A program made the position numbers and the translations under genes. A stretch of DNA of 7,942 nucleotides. Origin: a virus (taxonomy: Duplodnaviria; Heunggongvirae; Uroviricota; Caudoviricetes). This document shows, in pieces, positions 1-7,942 of the stretch. The stretch is from the IMG/VR virus record IMGVR_UViG_2740892235_000013. One strand, given 5' to 3'. Each line of letters starts with the position of its first letter. The first letter of the stretch is position 1. The notes under the pieces are model-generated. The model was not told the origin of the DNA, ran no database searches, and worked only from the letters and a program-made list of their open reading frames with translations.

Positions 1-137
1 ATGCCGAGAATAATCGAATTACGCCAGCAGAAAACCGCCATTAAAAATCAGATGCGCGACATGCTGGAGAACGCGGAAAAAGAAAACCGCAGTCTTAACG
101 ATGCTGAGGGCGCAAAATTTGACGAATTACGCGCTAA
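1..137 (+). CDS. Orphan 5' fragment (45 codons) of a second major-capsid gene copy, truncated by the N run at 138-147
   Basis: Bases 1-137 match 538-674 (start of the capsid gene) with 2 substitutions: codon 2 ccg vs cag (Pro vs Gln) and cgc vs cgt (synonymous). Translation MPRIIELRQQKTAIKNQMRDMLENAEKENRSLNDAEGAKFDELRA. Followed directly by 10 N. Confidence 0.6.
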
Positions 138-537: not shown

Positions 538-1838
538 ATGCAGAGAATAATCGAATTACGCCAGCAGAAAACCGCCATTAAAAATCAGATGCGTGACATG
601 CTGGAGAACGCGGAAAAAGAAAACCGCAGTCTTAACGATGCTGAGGGCGCAAAATTTGACGAATTACGCGCTAAAGCTGAATCCCTCGATAAAGACATTT
701 CCCGCCTTGAAGCCATTGCAGACGAAGAGCGCAGCAAGCCAGGTAAAAGCAGTCAGACCACTGACCCCGCAGAACTACGAAACTACATTCTGACGGGTGA
801 AACCCGCGCATTAAGTACAGGCGTTCCCGCTGATGGTGGTTATACCGTTATCCCCGAGCTGAACACCGAAATCATGCGAATGCTGGCGGATGAGTCCACC
901 ATGCGCCGCATCTGTACCGTGAAGAAAATCAGCAGCAACGAGTTTAAGCAGCTTGTTTCCGCTGGCGGTGCGACCGTTAACCACGGTGAAGAGGGTAAGA
1001 CACGCGAACAGACCAGCACCCCGCAGATTAACGAGGTGAGCATTAAGCTGTATCCGGTCTATGCGTACCCGCGCACCACACAGGAAATCGTGGATTTTTC
1101 CGATGTGGACATCCTTTCATGGCTGACGGGTGAGATTGGCGACACCTTCACGGAAACCGAAGAAAGCGATCTGGTTGTGGGCGACGGTGACAAAAAAGCA
1201 AAAGGTTTTTTATCCGTACCCCGTGCAGAGAAGAACGACAAAGAGCGTGATTTTGGTTCGTTGCAGGTAATTAAACCTTCCGAATCTCTGGCGTGGACAT
1301 CTGCGGACCCGTTGATCGACCTGAAATTTGCATTACGTNNNNNNNNNNCTTTTTATCCGTACCCCGTGCAGAGAAGAACGACAAAGAGCGTGATTTTGGT
1401 ACGTTGCAGGTAATTAAACCTTCCGAATCTCTGGCGTGGACATCTGCGGACCCGTTGATCGACCTGAAATTTGCATTACGTAAAAAATACCGCAAAAACG
1501 CGGTCTGGGTGGTTAACTCCACGACGGCGGCAAAACTTCAGAAGGTGAAGAACGCGAACGGTGATTACATCTGGCGCGACCGTTTACAGGCGGGTGATCC
1601 TGATACGTTGCTGGGCCTTCCGGTCGAATATCTGGAGTTTATGCCTGATAACGTTATTGCCCTGGGTGACTTCAAACGCGGTTACTACATTGTTGATCAC
1701 GAAACAGGTGTTCGCACCAGACCGGACAACCTCACAGAGCCGGGCTTCATCAAAATTTTCACGCAGAAATATTTAGGCGGTGGCGTGGTGGATTCGAACG
1801 CGATCAAGATTCTGGAACTGCCACAGGACGACGATTAA
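538..1838 (+). CDS. Major capsid protein, HK97 fold (about 385 aa once the assembly duplication is collapsed)
   Basis: ATG 538 with AGGA 525-528 upstream; stop TAA 1836-1838. N-terminal coiled-coil delta-domain-like region (IIELRQQKTAIKNQMRDMLENAEKENRSLNDAEGAKFDELRAKAESLDKDISRLEAI), then HK97-capsid-like blocks (GGYTVIPEL, LVVGDGDKKAKGFL, YIWRDRLQAGDPDTLLGLPVEY, GDFKRGYYIVDHETG). The frame is broken only by the N run at 1339-1348 plus a 133-bp duplication (143 nt net, not a multiple of 3). Collapsed length is 1158 bp. Confidence 0.9.
1206..1481. repeat. Tandem near-identical overlap (1206-1338 and 1349-1481) around the 10-N gap at 1339-1348; assembly artefact inside the capsid gene
   Basis: The sequence right of the gap restarts 133 bp upstream of where the left copy ends. 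One substitution between copies (ggttcg vs ggtacg, Ser vs Thr). Confidence 0.85.
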
Positions 1839-1877: not shown

Positions 1878-1892
1878 ATGGGTGAAAAAATT

Positions 1893-2450
1893 ATGAAGAG
1901 TATGGAAATCCGGTCATCGGAAATCACCACCAGCGGAGCCGGTACGCTGACGGGCTACGTTGTTCGCTGGGATAAGCTTTCAGAACTGTTATGGGGTGAG
2001 TTTTACGAAAAATTCCAGCGGGGAGCGTTTACTGAATGGCTTGCAGCGGGTAATGACGTTCGCGGCCTGTATGAGCATGACCACAGCATGTTACTGGGGC
2101 GTACCCGTTCCGGCACGCTGAAACTGGAAGAGGACGAAACAGGGTTACGCTTTGAACTGACCCCACCGGATACCAGCACAGGGCGGGACGTTATCGAACT
2201 GGTTAAACGTGGTGATATATCCGGCATGAGCTTTGGCTTTCGTTCCCGTAAGGATGTATGGGATACCACAACAGAACCATGCGTGCGCACCGTGCTGGTG
2301 GCGGAACTGTACGAAATTACCGTTACATCCGTTCCGGCTTACCCTGATTCCGGCGTGGAGCTGGCCCGCCGTTCCCTGTATGAGCAGCACCCCGAAAAAA
2401 TGCCGCGTGCGGATAATCGCCGCTGGTGGGTGGATTTAGCGGGGGTGTGA
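1893..2450 (+). CDS. Prohead (head maturation) protease, HK97 family (peptidase S78-like)
   Basis: Family-typical His block (LYEHDHSMLLGRTRSGTL) and Ser block (DISGMSFGF). ATG 1893 has GGTGA 7 nt upstream; the in-frame ATG at 1878 has no RBS and sits inside the terminator T tract, so 1893 is preferred. Stop TGA 2448-2450. Confidence 0.88.
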   Translation: MKSMEIRSSEITTSGAGTLTGYVVRWDKLSELLWGEFYEKFQRGAFTEWLAAGNDVRGLYEHDHSMLLGRTRSGTLKLEEDETGLRFELTPPDTSTGRDVIELVKRGDISGMSFGFRSRKDVWDTTTEPCVRTVLVAELYEITVTSVPAYPDSGVELARRSLYEQHPEKMPRADNRRWWVDLAGV

Positions 2451-2451
2451 T

Positions 2452-3829
2452 ATGTGGCCTTTCAGAAGAAAAAAAGAGCAGCGCAGCATGACGCTTGATG
2501 AATTTATGGCGCTGGCTGGCACATCGAACACGGGGGCGGGTGAGTACGTATCATCGGGGACAGCGGAATCACTGCCCGCCGTCATGAACGCCGTCACGGT
2601 CATCTCTGAGGCGGTGGCTACCATGCCGTGTTACCTGTACCTGGTACGCAATGAGAAGGGGAAGGAGGCCCGCGAGTGGCTTGATTCTCATCCGGTCGAT
2701 CACATCCTCAACGAGCGCCCGAACGCATGGCAAACCCCCTACCAGTTTAAGCGAATGATGATCCGCCACTGCCTGTTAAACGGTAATGCTTATGCGGTGA
2801 TTCAGTGGGGGCGTGATGGTTTTCCGGTGGCTTTACATCCTTACCCGCCGCAGTCGGTGAACGTGGAGCAGACAGGTGAGCATAACTGGCGCTACTGCAT
2901 CACTGACGCCTACACCGGAAACACCCGCAACTATTTACCGTGGGAGGTTCTCCACCTTCGTTACTCCACGGATGACGGTTTTATGGGGCGCTCACCTGTA
3001 ACCATCTGCCGCGAATCGCTGGGGCTTGGGCTGGCCCAACAACGCCACGGCGCGAGCGTGATGCGTGATGGCATGATGGCGGCAGGGGTTATCACGTCAG
3101 GCGAATGGCTGGACGGCGTGAAGGGCAAACAGGCATTAGCCGCACTGGAACGCTACAAAGGGGCCAGAAACGCCGGAAAAACGCCCATCCTTGAAGGGGG
3201 TATGAGCTATCAGCAGCTGGGCATGAGTAATCAGGATGCTGAATGGCTGGCCTCCCGTCGCTTCACCATTGAAGACATCGCCCGAATGTTCAACGTCTCG
3301 CCGATTTTTTTNNNNNNNNNNTAAAGGGGCCAGAAACGCCGGAAAAACGCCCATCCTTGAAGGTGGCATGAGTTACCAGCAGCTGGGCATGAGTAACCAG
3401 GATGCTGAATGGCTGGCCTCCCGTCGCTTCACCATTGAAGACATCGCCCGAATGTTCAACGTCTCGCCGATTTTTTTGCAGGAATACAGCAACAGCACCT
3501 ACAGCAATTTCAGCGAGGCAAGCCGCGCATTTCTCACCATGACGATGCGCCCGTGGCTGGCGAACTTTGAGCAGCAGATAAAAAACGCCCTGCTGGTGGC
3601 CTCGCCTGTACCTGGTATCCGGTATCAGGTGGAGTTTGACAGCGCGGACCTGTTACGGGCCACACCTGGCGAACGCTTTGCCACCTATGAGCGCGGCATC
3701 AAATCCGGCGTTATGTGTCCGAACGAAGCCCGCGAACGTGAAGGACTGTCACCGCGTGATGGTGGTGATGAGTTCAGCCAGGCATGGAAACAGGAAGTAA
3801 AAATCAGCGAGGGAGAAAAACCGGAATGA
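2452..3829 (+). CDS. Portal protein, HK97 family (about 403 aa once the duplication is collapsed)
   Basis: ATG 2452 is 1 nt after the protease stop. Portal-like sequence throughout (RESLGLGLAQQ, GMSNQDAEWLASRRFTIEDIARMFNVSP, PWLANFEQQI). Frame broken only by the N run at 3312-3321 plus a 155-bp duplication (166 nt net). Stop TGA 3827-3829. Confidence 0.9.
3157..3477. repeat. Tandem near-identical overlap (3157-3311 and 3323-3477) around the 10-N gap at 3312-3321; assembly artefact inside the portal gene
   Basis: The copies differ at 5 positions, all synonymous third-codon changes (ggg/ggt, ggt/ggc, agc/agt, tat/tac, aat/aac). Confidence 0.85.
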
Positions 3830-4460
3830 ACATAGGGCGACTGCGTGACAGGGTAACGATTCAGACCCTGAAACAGACCAGGGATATAACCGGCGAAATA
3901 CTCGAAACGTGGGAGGACAGTCACACACTCTGGGCAAGCGTGAACATGGTCAGCAGCAAGGAGGCCATTTCATCGGGTGCAGAGCTGGCGATTGGTACCG
4001 TAAGGATCTGGATACGGTACCGGAAGGACATCAGCGCCACCAGCCGGATAAAGGTCAATACGGGGCCGCTGGCGGGGCGTGTACTGAATATCATCGGGCA
4101 GCCGCTGCCGGATGCCGCCAGGACACGCCTTGAAATTCNNNNNNNNNNATAACGATTCAGACCCTGAAACAGACCAGAGCCATGACGGGCGAAATACTCG
4201 AAACGTGGGAGGACGGTCACACACTCTGGGCAAGCGTGAACATGATCAGCAGCAAGGAGGCCATTTCATCGGGCGCAGAGCTGGCGATTGGTACCGTAAG
4301 GATCTGGATACGGTACCGGAAGGACATCAACGCCACCAGTCGGATAAAGGTCAGTACGGGGCCGCTGGCGGGGCGTGTACTGAATATCATCGGGCAGCCG
4401 CTGCCGGATGCCGCCAGGACACGCCTTGAAATTCTTTGTCGTGAGGGCGCGGAAAAATGA
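3826..4460 (+). CDS. Head-closure / head-tail joining protein (SPP1 gp16-like family), 112 aa once collapsed
   Basis: ATG 3826 overlaps the portal stop (ATGA). Family-like pattern LRDRVTIQ...GE..ETWED.HTLWASV...S.KEAISSGAELAIGTVRIWIRYRKDI. Frame interrupted by the N run at 4139-4148 plus a 286-bp duplication (296 nt net). Stop TGA 4458-4460. Confidence 0.8.
3854..4434. repeat. Tandem near-identical overlap (3854-4138 and 4150-4434) around the 10-N gap at 4139-4148; assembly artefact inside the head-closure gene
   Basis: About 10 substitutions between copies, including amino-acid changes (DI/AM, S/G, V/I, S/N, N/S) and synonymous changes. Confidence 0.85.
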
Positions 4461-4916
4461 CAGAAGAACTTATCACCCTGGAAGAAGTGAAACTCCATTG
4501 CCGCATCGATGGCGACGATGAAGACCAGTTAATCAGCGGATACATTGCCGCATCGCTTGAGGCGTGCCAGATACACATAGGCAGGCGCTTTGATGACGGG
4601 CTGGAGTTCACGCCAGCCATAAAGATTGGCTGCATGATGTTTATCGCTCACCTGTANNNNNNNNNNTATCGATGGCGACGAGGAAGACCAGTTAATCAGC
4701 GGATACATTGCCGCATCGCTTGAGGCGTGCCAGATACATATAGGCAGGCGCTTTGATGACGGGCTGGAGTTCACGCCAGCCATAAAGATTGGCTGCATGA
4801 TGTTTATCGCTCACCTGTATGAGAATCGCCAGATTGTCGCGGATAACGCAAAAACACGCGTACCCATGACGATTGGCGCACTCTGGACGGCTTACCGTGA
4901 TGTGGGGGTGTACTGA
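4457..4916 (+). CDS. gp6-like head-tail connector protein, 98 aa once collapsed
   Basis: ATG 4457 overlaps the upstream stop (ATGA). N-terminus MTEELITLEEVKLHCRIDGDDEDQLISGYIAASLEA is typical of gp6-like connectors. Frame interrupted by the N run at 4657-4666 plus a 152-bp duplication (163 nt net). Stop TGA 4914-4916. Confidence 0.75.
4505..4819. repeat. Tandem near-identical overlap (4505-4656 and 4668-4819) around the 10-N gap at 4657-4666; assembly artefact inside the connector gene
   Basis: Two substitutions between copies: gat/gag (Asp/Glu) and cac/cat (synonymous). Confidence 0.85.
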
Positions 4917-5356
4917 TGCCGTGGCAACCATTAAGACGATGCACAGAACCAGGCTGTAACAGGCGCGTTAAATCCGGCAAGTGTGAGGAGCACAGGCGGG
5001 CGGCATGGCGTGCAGAGGATGCCAGACGAGGACACCGCCGCGCGCGTGGATATTCCAGACAGTGGGACAAATACCGCGCCATGTATCTGAGTAAAAACCC
5101 GTTATGCGTGCGATGCCTTGAGAAGGGGATATATACGCCCGCCGTGGTGGTGGATCACATTATCCCGATTAATGGCGGTGATGATGTTCTCTTCTGGCCC
5201 GAATGGAACCATCAACCATTGTGCCAGGCGTGTCATAACCAGAAAACGAAATGGCTTGATCCGGCAACAAAAAGCAAGCGTGCCGCAGGTGGATTTCGTG
5301 AAGAGGAAGAACGGGCCGCTAACCGCAATAACTGGATGTATGACGCTGATGAATGA
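4916..5356 (+). CDS. HNH endonuclease (phage packaging-associated type), 146 aa
   Basis: ATG 4916 overlaps the connector stop (TGATG). Cys-rich N-terminus (CTEPGCNRRVKSGKCEEH) and HNH core (VVDHIIPINGG...NHQPLCQACHNQKT). Stop TGA 5354-5356. Confidence 0.9.
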   Translation: MPWQPLRRCTEPGCNRRVKSGKCEEHRRAAWRAEDARRGHRRARGYSRQWDKYRAMYLSKNPLCVRCLEKGIYTPAVVVDHIIPINGGDDVLFWPEWNHQPLCQACHNQKTKWLDPATKSKRAAGGFREEEERAANRNNWMYDADE

Positions 5357-5522
5357 GCGGGAGCAAAACCGCCTTATCCGTGGACTTATAAGGCAGCGTG
5401 ACGCATGGAAGACACAGGAAACAGGGCATAAAGATAAAGCGTCAGGACGCGCAGAACGCATCACAGCGAAGCGATTAACCGACCGTGACCGCGAGGTTAT
5501 GGAATGTTTCCGCAATCGCTGA
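5349..5522 (+). CDS. Small hypothetical protein (57 aa, Arg/Lys-rich)
   Basis: ATG 5349 overlaps the HNH stop by 8 nt (ATGAATGA). Translation MNEREQNRLIRGLIRQRDAWKTQETGHKDKASGRAERITAKRLTDRDREVMECFRNR. No clear RBS, so translation would have to be coupled. No recognisable family. Confidence 0.4.
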   Translation: MNEREQNRLIRGLIRQRDAWKTQETGHKDKASGRAERITAKRLTDRDREVMECFRNR

Positions 5523-5645
5523 TGAGGCTGTATGACGGGGTGGGGGGCGTTTTCAGGACCAACCCGACCCCGCCGGGCACCGAACGCCTCCTCAAATTTT
5601 TATGCACGGGAATTTTTTGAAAAATAATCTGGCGAAAAAATAAGC
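5523..5645. promoter_or_regulatory. Non-coding spacer upstream of terS; candidate cos/packaging-initiation region
   Basis: 123 bp with no ORF. G-run gacggggtggggggcgttttcagg followed by C-rich caacccgaccccgccgggcaccg, then an AT-rich tract (aaatttttatgcacgggaattttttgaaaaataat). Sits between HNH and terS, where cos lies in HK97-type phages. Confidence 0.35.
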
Positions 5646-6002
5646 ATGGCAAGACCACCGAAAGCCCCCGCCTACCTGGATGATATCGCCGTGAAGCAGT
5701 GGCGGGAAAAATCGCGGCAGCTTGCGGAACGGGGAGACCTGACCCCCGCCGACTGGAGCAATCTGGAACTGTATTGTGTCAACTACTCCATTTACCGGAA
5801 AGCCGTTGCAGACCTTGCGGCGCGCGGGTTCAGCATTGTTAACAGTCAGGGCGGCGAGAGCAGAAACCCCGCATTAAGCGCAAAATCCGACGCTGAAAGA
5901 GTGATGATAAAAATGGCCTCCTTGCTCGGTTTTGACCCGATAAGCCGCCGTAAAAATCCACCGGAAACAGAAGAAGAGGACGAGCTTGACCGCCTGGAAT
6001 AA
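5646..6002 (+). CDS. terS: Terminase small subunit, P27 family, 118 aa
   Basis: ATG 5646, stop TAA 6000-6002. P27-family-like pattern (LTPADWSNLELYCVNYSIYRKA...NPALSAKSDAERVMIKMASLLGFDPISRRK) with an acidic C-terminus. Confidence 0.85.
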   Translation: MARPPKAPAYLDDIAVKQWREKSRQLAERGDLTPADWSNLELYCVNYSIYRKAVADLAARGFSIVNSQGGESRNPALSAKSDAERVMIKMASLLGFDPISRRKNPPETEEEDELDRLE

Positions 6003-7647
6003 GTACGCAGAAGACGTAAAAACGGGCAAAATTCCGGCCTGTAAACGGCTGAAACAGGCCGTTAAACGGTACTTTTCGGACCTTGAAAGCCCCCTTTACA
6101 CGTTCGATCGTGAGGTTGTGGAGCGGTTTATTGCCTTTTCCAGGGTGTGCCCGCACGTAAAAGGGCCGATGCGTGGCAGACCCATTGAGCTGGAGCCGTG
6201 GCAGCAGTTCGCCTTTGCGTGCATCCTCGGCTTTAAGGTTAAGGCCACCGGACGGCGCAAATACACGAGCGCCTTTATCGAAGTGCCGCGCAAAAATGCG
6301 AAATCCACGACCGCCGCGATTCTGGCTAACTGGTTTCTGATTATGGAGAACGGGCAGCAGGATATTTACACCGCAGCGGTGAGCCGTGACCAGGCGCGGA
6401 TCGTTTTTGATGATGCGCGTCAGATGTGCCTTTTATCCCGACCGTTACGCAGGCGGGTGAATATTCAGGCCCACAAGGTGATGCACCCGAAAAGCAACAG
6501 CCTGTTAAAGCCGCTGGCAGCAAAAGCGGCAACCATCGAGGGAACAAACCCCAGCCTTTCCATCGTGGACGAATACCACCTACACCCCGATAACGGCGTT
6601 TATTCCGCGCTTGAGCTGGGGATGGGCGCACGTCCCGAAGGGCTGTTATTTGCCATTACCACATCGGGCAGTAACGTCGTTTCAGCCTGTAAACAGCACT
6701 ATGATTATTGCTGCCAGATCCTGGACGGCGAAGAGGTCAATGATTCAATTTTTGTGCTGATTTACGAGCTGGACGACGAAAACGAGGTTGATGATCCGGC
6801 GATGTGGATAAAGGCTAACCCTAACATCGATGTTTCCGTGGATCGTGAAAAACTGGCCTCAACCATCCAGAAAGCGCGGGGTATTCCGTCGCAATGGGTG
6901 GAGATGATGACAAAGCGATTTAATATCTGGTGCCAGGGGGCTACCCCGTGGATGGGTAACGGCGCATGGGCTGAGTGTGCCGGAACGTTCACGGAGGAAG
7001 ATTTACACGGGCAGGAGTGTTACGCGGGGCTGGACTTATCATCAACCAGCGATATTTCCAGCGTGTGCTATGCCTTTCCGGTCGGTAAAAATATCATGCT
7101 GGTTTCCCGTCATTATCTGCCGGAGTTCCAGCTACAGAACCCCGCCAATAAAAACCGCGCTGTCTATCGCCAGTGGGCTAAAGCGGGCTGGATACGCACA
7201 ACGCCAGGTGACTGCATTGATTACGACCGGATCAGAGATGACATCATGCAGGATGCGGAGAAATTTAATATCAGGCTGGTGGGCTTTGATACGTGGAACG
7301 CCACGCATCTCAGGACGCAATTACAGGGGGCTGGTTTTGAGGTGGAGCCGTTCCCGCAAACCTACCTCAGATTCAGTCCGGCGGCGAAATCGTTCGAAGT
7401 TTTTGTTAACCGCAGGGTGATTGTGCATCGTGGCGATCCGGTGTTGTCCTGGTCGATGAGTAACGTCGTGATGCAGAGTGACGCGAACGCCAATATCAAG
7501 CCGAACAAGAAAAAATCACCGAACAAGATAGACCCGAGCGTAGCGGCGCTGATGGCGTTTGGTACATTCCAGGCAGAGCATGAGGATTTTGCTTTTGATA
7601 TAAGCGACAGCCACCGCCAGAAACTGGAAGAATTTAGCGGGGTGTAA
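5986..7647 (+). CDS. terL: Terminase large subunit, 553 aa
   Basis: TTG 5986 is the only start codon in frame after the upstream stop at 5941-5943; it overlaps terS by 17 nt with a purine-rich stretch (gaagaagagga) upstream. N-terminal blocks typical of this terminase family (YAEDVKTGKIPACKRLKQAVKRY, HVKGPMRGRPIELEPWQQF), P-loop-like PRKNAKSTTAA, acidic nuclease-domain residues downstream. Stop TAA 7645-7647. Confidence 0.9.
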   Translation: MTAWNKYAEDVKTGKIPACKRLKQAVKRYFSDLESPLYTFDREVVERFIAFSRVCPHVKGPMRGRPIELEPWQQFAFACILGFKVKATGRRKYTSAFIEVPRKNAKSTTAAILANWFLIMENGQQDIYTAAVSRDQARIVFDDARQMCLLSRPLRRRVNIQAHKVMHPKSNSLLKPLAAKAATIEGTNPSLSIVDEYHLHPDNGVYSALELGMGARPEGLLFAITTSGSNVVSACKQHYDYCCQILDGEEVNDSIFVLIYELDDENEVDDPAMWIKANPNIDVSVDREKLASTIQKARGIPSQWVEMMTKRFNIWCQGATPWMGNGAWAECAGTFTEEDLHGQECYAGLDLSSTSDISSVCYAFPVGKNIMLVSRHYLPEFQLQNPANKNRAVYRQWAKAGWIRTTPGDCIDYDRIRDDIMQDAEKFNIRLVGFDTWNATHLRTQLQGAGFEVEPFPQTYLRFSPAAKSFEVFVNRRVIVHRGDPVLSWSMSNVVMQSDANANIKPNKKKSPNKIDPSVAALMAFGTFQAEHEDFAFDISDSHRQKLEEFSGV

Positions 7648-7660
7648 TGAGGTCAGCAGC

Positions 7661-7942
7661 ATGACAGAAGCCGAAATACTGCGATTAATCCGCCGCGTCT
7701 CTGGAATCAGCCAGCAGGCTGACGAACAGACCACGCAGCCGGACAGCGTGACAGCCGAAAATTATGCGCGTGTTGTTGCTGAGGTGATGCGCCGTGATGG
7801 TATCCAGCTTAATGATGCGGATATGCGCGACATACGGATCCGCGTTCTGGAAATGCTGGCCTACAATCGCCGCGTTGAACTGTATCGGGAGAAGGAGAAA
7901 ATCACGTATCACTGGAAGAAGCCGGAGCGGTTACGGCGGTAA
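7661..7942 (+). CDS. Hypothetical protein (93 aa) immediately downstream of terL
   Basis: ATG 7661 with GAGG 8 nt upstream; stop TAA 7940-7942 at the window edge. Translation MTEAEILRLIRRVSGISQQADEQTT...; no recognisable family. Occupies the position where a portal gene sits in canonical phages. Confidence 0.5.
   Translation: MTEAEILRLIRRVSGISQQADEQTTQPDSVTAENYARVVAEVMRRDGIQLNDADMRDIRIRVLEMLAYNRRVELYREKEKITYHWKKPERLRR

Follow-up and report, generated by a model that had tools for sequence, protein, structure and literature searches.

A draft Escherichia coli scaffold very probably prints, in series, two slightly different versions of a capsid-forming PICI packaging module

Our results suggest that a draft genome of Escherichia coli very probably holds two slightly different versions of a capsid-forming phage-inducible chromosomal island (cf-PICI), and that its assembler printed both versions of the differing stretches one after the other. 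The DNA analysed here (the window, 7,942 bases; IMG/VR record IMGVR_UViG_2740892235_000013) carries the head and packaging genes of such an island, and is identical to bases 141-8082 of scaffold CCQJ01000078.1 (68.6 kb) of the assembly GCA_000753315.1. It was identified through the truncated head-closure product (4182-4460), which only a broken scaffold would encode; a look-up of the truncated portal product (2452-3324, with X residues) returned no record. This scaffold begins within the island, the left half of which is not on it. The alleles seen in the window are real, its tandem repeats and seemingly disrupted genes are scaffolding artefacts, and the data do not call for a new mechanism.

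The window contains five runs of exactly 10 N and is consequently a scaffold of six contigs (C1 to C6; Table 1). Every spacer is flanked on both sides by a near-identical direct repeat, and the geometry of these repeats can be read directly from the letters. In a de Bruijn graph, an allele-specific node extends from the first k-mer containing the first variant to the last k-mer containing the last variant. In the window, the left contig ends exactly 80 nucleotides (nt) past the last difference at all five junctions, and at the four junctions that lie wholly inside it the very first base of the right contig is a difference. The full-length C1 (277 nt) likewise starts on a mismatch, and differs from C2 solely at sites that distinguish two natural variants of the island, A and B, described below; C2 starts at the first base at which B diverges from A, the two being identical over slightly more than 81 nt before it. 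Moreover, the length of each overlap equals the span from the first to the last difference plus 81, the spans of 196, 52, 75, 205 and 72 nt giving overlaps of 277, 133, 156, 286 and 153 nt at the adjacent contig ends. Successive differences are spaced by at most 57 nt within the clusters and by at least 150 nt between them, and 81 lies between these two values. What the five junctions show are de Bruijn bubbles at k = 81, each with its two arms written one behind the other. Note that the exact 80-nt tails imply that both versions existed in the reads as complete, adequately covered k-mer paths; since both are well-supported paths, the differences are not consensus noise. The invariable length of the spacers (10 N) is consistent with a scaffolder that inserts a minimum gap whenever its distance estimate is negative.

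The same signature is found in the uncollapsed bubble arms or haplotig duplications of de Bruijn assemblies, in which two alleles are also printed serially, the overlap equals the variant span plus k, the contig ends k-1 past the last variant, and a minimum N spacer stands for a negative gap. The difference is that the two versions seen here most likely stem from paralogous mobile islands of a haploid genome, and not from diploid alleles. In practice, a contig tail of k-1 together with an overlap of variant span plus k offers a test for this kind of artefact that does not need the reads.

The overlaps contain 25 differences in the window, 15 of them synonymous and 10 replacements, and their distribution reflects purifying selection acting on real alleles. 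The ratio of nonsynonymous to synonymous rates (dN/dS, Nei-Gojobori) was 0.23 on the 22 differences that fall in complete codons, transitions outnumbered transversions 19:6, and third codon positions held 17/25 of the changes (binomial P against random change of 1e-3, 4e-4 and 2e-5, respectively). A first-pass annotation, made from the window alone, had already proposed that these were real alleles rather than sequencing errors, and the coding effects that it described were reproduced. The first base of each right-hand contig, which it had missed, is a further difference (1206/1349, 3156/3322, 3853/4149 and 4504/4667), three of them synonymous and one a second V/I replacement. Thus, the five synonymous third-position changes reported in the portal overlap (bubble 3, 156 nt) were all recovered and become six, all synonymous; the S>T replacement reported in the capsid overlap (bubble 2, 133 nt) is joined by a second difference (positions 1206 and 1258); and the D>E replacement and the synonymous change reported in the connector overlap (bubble 5, 153 nt) by a third, also synonymous. 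In the head-closure overlap (bubble 4, 286 nt), the annotated replacements were present (D>A, I>M, S>G, V>I, S>N and N>S, together with synonymous changes), and the approximate count of ten was raised to 11, or 12 with the first base, which is the second V/I. The remaining overlap (bubble 1), in which 1-137 matches 538-674, contains P>Q and one synonymous change, at positions 5 and 57. The divergence of about 1-3.5% proposed for the two alleles was also revised: it is 1.5-4.2% by our recount, and this range holds only for the overlaps, which are by construction the stretches densest in single-nucleotide polymorphisms (SNPs); over the whole module of ~6.9 kb, A and B are distinguished by 56 columns (~0.8%).

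The contigs were searched one by one against 5426 complete E. coli genomes. C2 (1191 nt) and C5 (508 nt) were 100% identical to variant B, present in RM10042, 12E115, JNE151685 and in the tqsA copy of RM10809-3, and C1 was 100% identical to the variant A references. The best matches of C3, C4 and C6 were 2014C-3097, RM9245, FWSEC0010, JNE120393 and 00-3076. We then took the island of 2014C-3097, located at the roxA/phoQ site, as reference A, and that of RM10809-3 at the tqsA site as reference B. The window carries either the A or the B base at 56/56 columns where these references differ. Within every overlap, one of the copies has only A bases and the other only B bases (25/25 sites), so that the allele identities are observed directly: the junctions read C1=A and C2=B, C2=B and C3=A, C3=B and C4=A, C4=A and C5=B, and C5=B and C6=A. 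Random errors could not produce such a coincidence in both position and base. In agreement with the first-pass annotation, which had proposed a chimeric scaffold alternating between two copies, the contigs at their junctions are C1=A, C2=B, C3=A then B, C4=A, C5=B and C6=A. Only base 6741 of the window matches no reference island; it lies at a synonymous third position (AAT, Asn) of the large terminase.

Upstream of about position 254, A and B are not alignable (region 148-537, before the capsid gene). A-type islands have an extra open reading frame (ORF) of 74-100 amino acids (aa) between PerC and the capsid gene, and their PerC is 82 aa long versus 90 aa. Just before the capsid start codon, A and B differ by 1 nt in the length of a T-run (530-537).

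Genomes with two such islands exist, as was observed directly in closed sequences. RM10809-3 and 00-3076 each carry one island in tqsA and another between roxA and phoQ, and GCA_025988905.1 also has two islands in one chromosome. The co-resident pairs differ at 13-25 sites over 6.6 kb, in few clusters and with identical runs of 2.3-4.3 kb, while the median over all the island pairs is 52 differences. This patchy near-identity is what would lead an assembler to collapse most of the module and to leave a few bubbles. In support of this, one pair of islands (L015/L016) differs at exactly the head-closure cluster of the window's bubble 4. In 00-3076, the two co-resident islands are identical from the capsid gene through HNH (4.3 kb) and differ solely in the terminase region and near the right end, a pattern that suggests a recent duplication or gene conversion between the copies. 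Multiple carriage is not rare, as C5 matched 377 places in 358 genomes. Moreover, contigs of two unrelated draft assemblies, GCA_039854045.1 (1296 nt) and GCA_048002365.1 (645 nt), begin at the window-equivalent positions 4182 and 4179, within the head-closure SNP cluster, which suggests that these strains also hold two island copies differing there. A third site, rcnR/thiM, is used in other assemblies by islands whose 406-aa integrase is different, and proL/yejO may be a further location of this packaging module. Thus, one chromosome can carry two or more cf-PICIs of this type that are almost identical; at least three or four attachment sites are used, and the copies differ in recombination blocks.

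We propose the following origin for the scaffold. The two island copies would be identical over most of the head and packaging module and would differ in short SNP clusters, which probably correspond to natural recombination blocks segregating in the island population. A short-read de Bruijn assembler working at k = 81 would have collapsed the identical stretches and kept the SNP clusters as two bubble arms. During repeat resolution and scaffolding, each shared stretch would have been fused to one arm per side and the left-over arm placed adjacent to it, the negative gap estimate being written as the minimum spacer of 10 N. Both arms of the five bubbles would in this way end up in tandem, on a backbone that switches between the island copies, and the capsid, portal, adaptor and connector genes would look broken or partly duplicated. 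The layout of the scaffold can be written as [a1] N [b0 S0 b1 S1 b2] N [a2 S2 b3] N [a3 S3 a4] N [b4 S4 b5] N [a5 S5 ...], where a and b are bubble arms and S are the stretches common to both copies. Each shared stretch is printed once, the longest being S2 (~1.7 kb), and both arms of all the bubbles are present. A phasing in which the odd contigs represent one copy (a1 a2 b3 b4 b5) and the even contigs the other (b1 b2 a3 a4 a5) is self-consistent but unproven. The reference haplotypes cannot decide the phase across the long shared stretches because the five blocks are combined in many ways in natural islands (aaaaa, bbbbb, aaaba, baaaa, aaabb and others).

Several observations weigh against this proposal. 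C3, C4 and C6 have no 100% match among the references (3-5 mismatches at best), and none of the closed genomes examined holds exactly this pair of variants. In addition, five clusters that vary between A and B have no junction in the window (2828-2979, 3697-3751, 4823-4874, 5215-5635 and 6693-6768). There, either the source copies are identical, which is more likely, or their second arms were lost or put in another place. The assembler may have been Velvet, which presumably writes gaps of <10 bp as 10 N; the case itself is carried by the k = 81 geometry. Within contigs, the allele also switches, C3 being B at 2045 and 3156-3231, C4 at 3697-3751 and C6 at 5215-5635; these switches may be true mosaics common to both copies, or path switches across shared stretches.

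We also considered that junctions might mark the bubbles too long to be popped automatically. This was rejected, since clusters with and without a junction have similar spans (none at 6693-6768, one at 4504-4576).

How else could both versions have entered one scaffold? The first-pass annotation had left the choice between two copies of the module in one genome and a mixed sample, a pair of options that the bubble geometry, the 25/25 A/B sites and the closed two-island genomes now support. A mixed or contaminated culture, in which two E. coli strains with one island variant each were merged by the assembler, would produce the same bubbles and the same real, selection-shaped alleles. However, a mixture of ordinarily divergent strains should also yield bubbles in the chromosome, and the 5.8 kb of chromosomal flank examined from the source scaffold contain no junction, that is, neither an N spacer nor a duplication. 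Moreover, a mixture is not needed, as the closed genomes document two islands with patchy differences. We therefore favour two islands in one genome, both copies presumably lying in one chromosome, and consider a mixed culture unlikely. As for the nature of the two copies, a pair of islands agrees with the data, while an island and a prophage with homologous head genes, which had been suggested as well, fits less well, A and B being allelic forms of one satellite family.

There is a negligible chance that a single-copy island acquired the differences through errors of sequencing, consensus or assembly, and we regard this explanation as effectively refuted. Its sole support is that the sequence stems from a draft assembly, but errors would not match natural A/B polymorphisms at every one of the 25 sites, would not be biased to synonymous, transition and third-position changes, and would not leave the exact 80-nt tails that require complete k-mer paths for both variants; in addition, two of the contigs match an independent closed genome without a single mismatch. 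It is just as improbable that the partial tandem duplications exist in the genome itself. The deposited sequence contains them, but every one sits on an N spacer with k-dependent geometry, they would disrupt the capsid, portal, adaptor and connector genes, and tandem copies were found in none of the complete or near-complete reference islands examined.

A further question is posed by the right end of the island. Scaffold bases 7401-8650 are 100% identical to an A-type cf-PICI, and bases 8021-9600 are identical, with 1 mismatch, to a satellite of E. coli O22:H8 strain 154 located at tRNA-Pro/yejO, together with its flank. Over the 630 nt common to both (scaffold 8021-8650; window 7881-7942 onward), the right end of the cf-PICI and the strain-154 satellite are 100% identical. 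This satellite shares with the island the 93-aa last gene and the right end, and has a similar left half (integrase, helix-turn-helix regulator, Icd-like protein, RepA helicase and SSB), but it encodes a ClpP-like protease/capsid fusion and lacks the portal, adaptor, connector, HNH and terminase genes. Since none of the 5426 complete genomes joins the large terminase of the island to yejO, the chromosomal placement of the island in the scaffold is not secure: the island may truly be at yejO, or the assembly path may have switched elements there. Thus, more than two related elements could be involved, for example two cf-PICIs plus a proL/yejO satellite sharing the right end only, with the link between the terminase and yejO as a further path switch. 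The absence of this join from the complete genomes, the existence of the strain-154 satellite at that site and an identical stretch of 630 nt, far longer than k and hence able to permit a switch, all speak for it. On the other hand, C6 is a gap-free contig, and the family is modular, with the same packaging module found next to different integrases and at different sites, which makes a true cf-PICI at proL/yejO plausible. We regard the involvement of a further element as a tenable possibility, although we lean against it.

The placement at yejO also bears on a bolder idea. The choice of tail by cf-PICIs has been published to be set by the adaptor and the connector. The adaptor (head-closure) block, 3853-4058 in one arm and 4149-4354 in the other, is the richest in replacements, with a local pN/pS of ~0.45 versus ~0.23 overall. 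Judged from the sequence, the concentration of replacements in the adaptor gene, taken with the role of adaptor and connector in tail choice, may be a reasonable lead to follow up. If the isolate carried one cf-PICI at tRNA-Pro/yejO and a second, co-resident one, and if these exchanged short blocks by gene conversion, a single cell would hold, through its adaptor and connector alleles, two tail specificities that it could reshuffle. We consider this unlikely; a cf-PICI at tRNA-Pro/yejO was seen in 0/5426 complete genomes.

Next, we examined the type of the element, which was established directly from its genes. Removal of one copy of each repeat restored uninterrupted genes on the + strand (Table 1), and the Pfam matches of the de-duplicated sequence follow exactly the order of the cf-PICI packaging module listed in the published operational criteria. 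These also ask for a size of ~10-18 kb with an integrase and modules for regulation and replication; the near-identical islands of closed genomes measure ~14.5-15 kb, and in them the genes for a tyrosine integrase, an AlpA-type regulator, an Icd-like protein, a RepA-type helicase, SSB and PerC precede the packaging module. Neither the window and scaffold, from the capsid gene to the island end and into yejO, nor any reference island contains tail or lysis genes. Over 6.9 kb, the de-duplicated module is 97.2% identical in nucleotides to EcCIEDL933, the roxA/phoQ island of EDL933. This element, described as the prototype of the cf-PICIs, makes its own small T=4 capsids and uses the tails of helper phages. 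By sequence and gene order, the window element is a cf-PICI and a member of this already known family.

The window shares with EcCIEDL933 (E. coli O157:H7) the order of capsid, protease and portal, then adaptor, connector and HNH, then small terminase and large terminase, followed by the 93-aa gene. It differs from it as an allelic variant, and the replication gene of its close relatives, like that of most of the reference islands, encodes a RepA-type helicase, versus a DUF927 protein in EDL933; in addition, the right flank in the source scaffold is yejO and not phoQ. The head and packaging modules of HK97-like siphophages with a P27-family small terminase and HNH contain the same Pfam families (capsid, S78 protease, portal, head completion, gp6 connector, HNH, Terminase_4 and TerL). 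In contrast, the order is permuted in the island, where the head genes precede HNH and the terminases, and the island is ~15 kb long and has no tail, lysis or lysogeny-switch genes.

These results have a practical side. In a publicly available draft scaffold, four satellite genes that are intact look truncated or duplicated, and two island copies are mixed, so that automated annotation or programs that search for satellites could rate the island as degenerate or return a non-existent haplotype.

Table 1. Contigs, spacers, bubble arms and genes of the window (positions are those of the window)
Feature	Position	Strand	Remark
C1	1-137		first contig in the window; 277 nt in the full source scaffold
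C2	148-1338		contig, 1191 nt
C3	1349-3311		contig
C4	3322-4138		contig
C5	4149-4656		contig, 508 nt
C6	4667-7942 and beyond the window		gap-free contig
10-N scaffold spacer C1/C2	138-147	none	
10-N scaffold spacer C2/C3	1339-1348	none	
10-N scaffold spacer C3/C4	3312-3321	none	
10-N scaffold spacer C4/C5	4139-4148	none	
10-N scaffold spacer C5/C6	4657-4666	none	
Bubble 1, A arm	1-137	+	end of C1; full arm 277 nt; C1 100% identical to A references
Bubble 1, B arm	538-674	+	inside C2
Bubble 2, B arm	1206-1338	+	end of C2, capsid gene; ends 80 nt after 1258
Bubble 2, A arm	1349-1481	+	start of C3
Bubble 3, B arm	3156-3311	+	end of C3, portal gene
Bubble 3, A arm	3322-3477	+	start of C4
Bubble 4, A arm	3853-4138	+	end of C4, head-closure/adaptor gene
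Bubble 4, B arm	4149-4434	+	start of C5
Bubble 5, B arm	4504-4656	+	end of C5, head-tail connector gene
Bubble 5, A arm	4667-4819	+	start of C6
HK97-type major capsid gene (PF05065)	538-1838	+	spacer/duplication 1339-1481; 385 aa de-duplicated
Prohead serine protease (Peptidase_S78)	1878-2450	+	intact
Portal gene (PF04860)	2452-3829	+	interrupted 3312-3477; 403 aa de-duplicated
Head completion/closure protein (PF05521), the cf-PICI adaptor	3826-4460	+	interrupted 4139-4434; 112 aa de-duplicated
gp6-like head-tail connector (PF05135)	4457-4916	+	interrupted 4657-4819; 98 aa de-duplicated
HNH endonuclease	4916-5356	+	
Small terminase, P27 family (Terminase_4)	5646-6002	+	
Large terminase (TerL_ATPase + TerL_nuclease)	5986-7647	+	
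93-aa conserved hypothetical, last gene of the island	7661-7942	+	also in a different satellite at proL/yejO

Finally, some minor features of the window were recorded. GC-rich, terminator-like hairpins with T-runs follow PerC (256-273) and the capsid gene (1848-1869); the promoter and terminator scans returned nothing beyond these two, terminator-like sites were no more numerous in the window than in shuffled sequence, and an Rfam scan of the window gave no matches. A 60-aa ORF (5340-5522) overlaps the 3' end of the HNH gene and is annotated as a conserved hypothetical in all the RefSeq relatives. It is followed, immediately before the small terminase gene, by an intergenic region of 120 nt (5523-5645) that contains a G-rich run and is a candidate position for the cos/packaging site.

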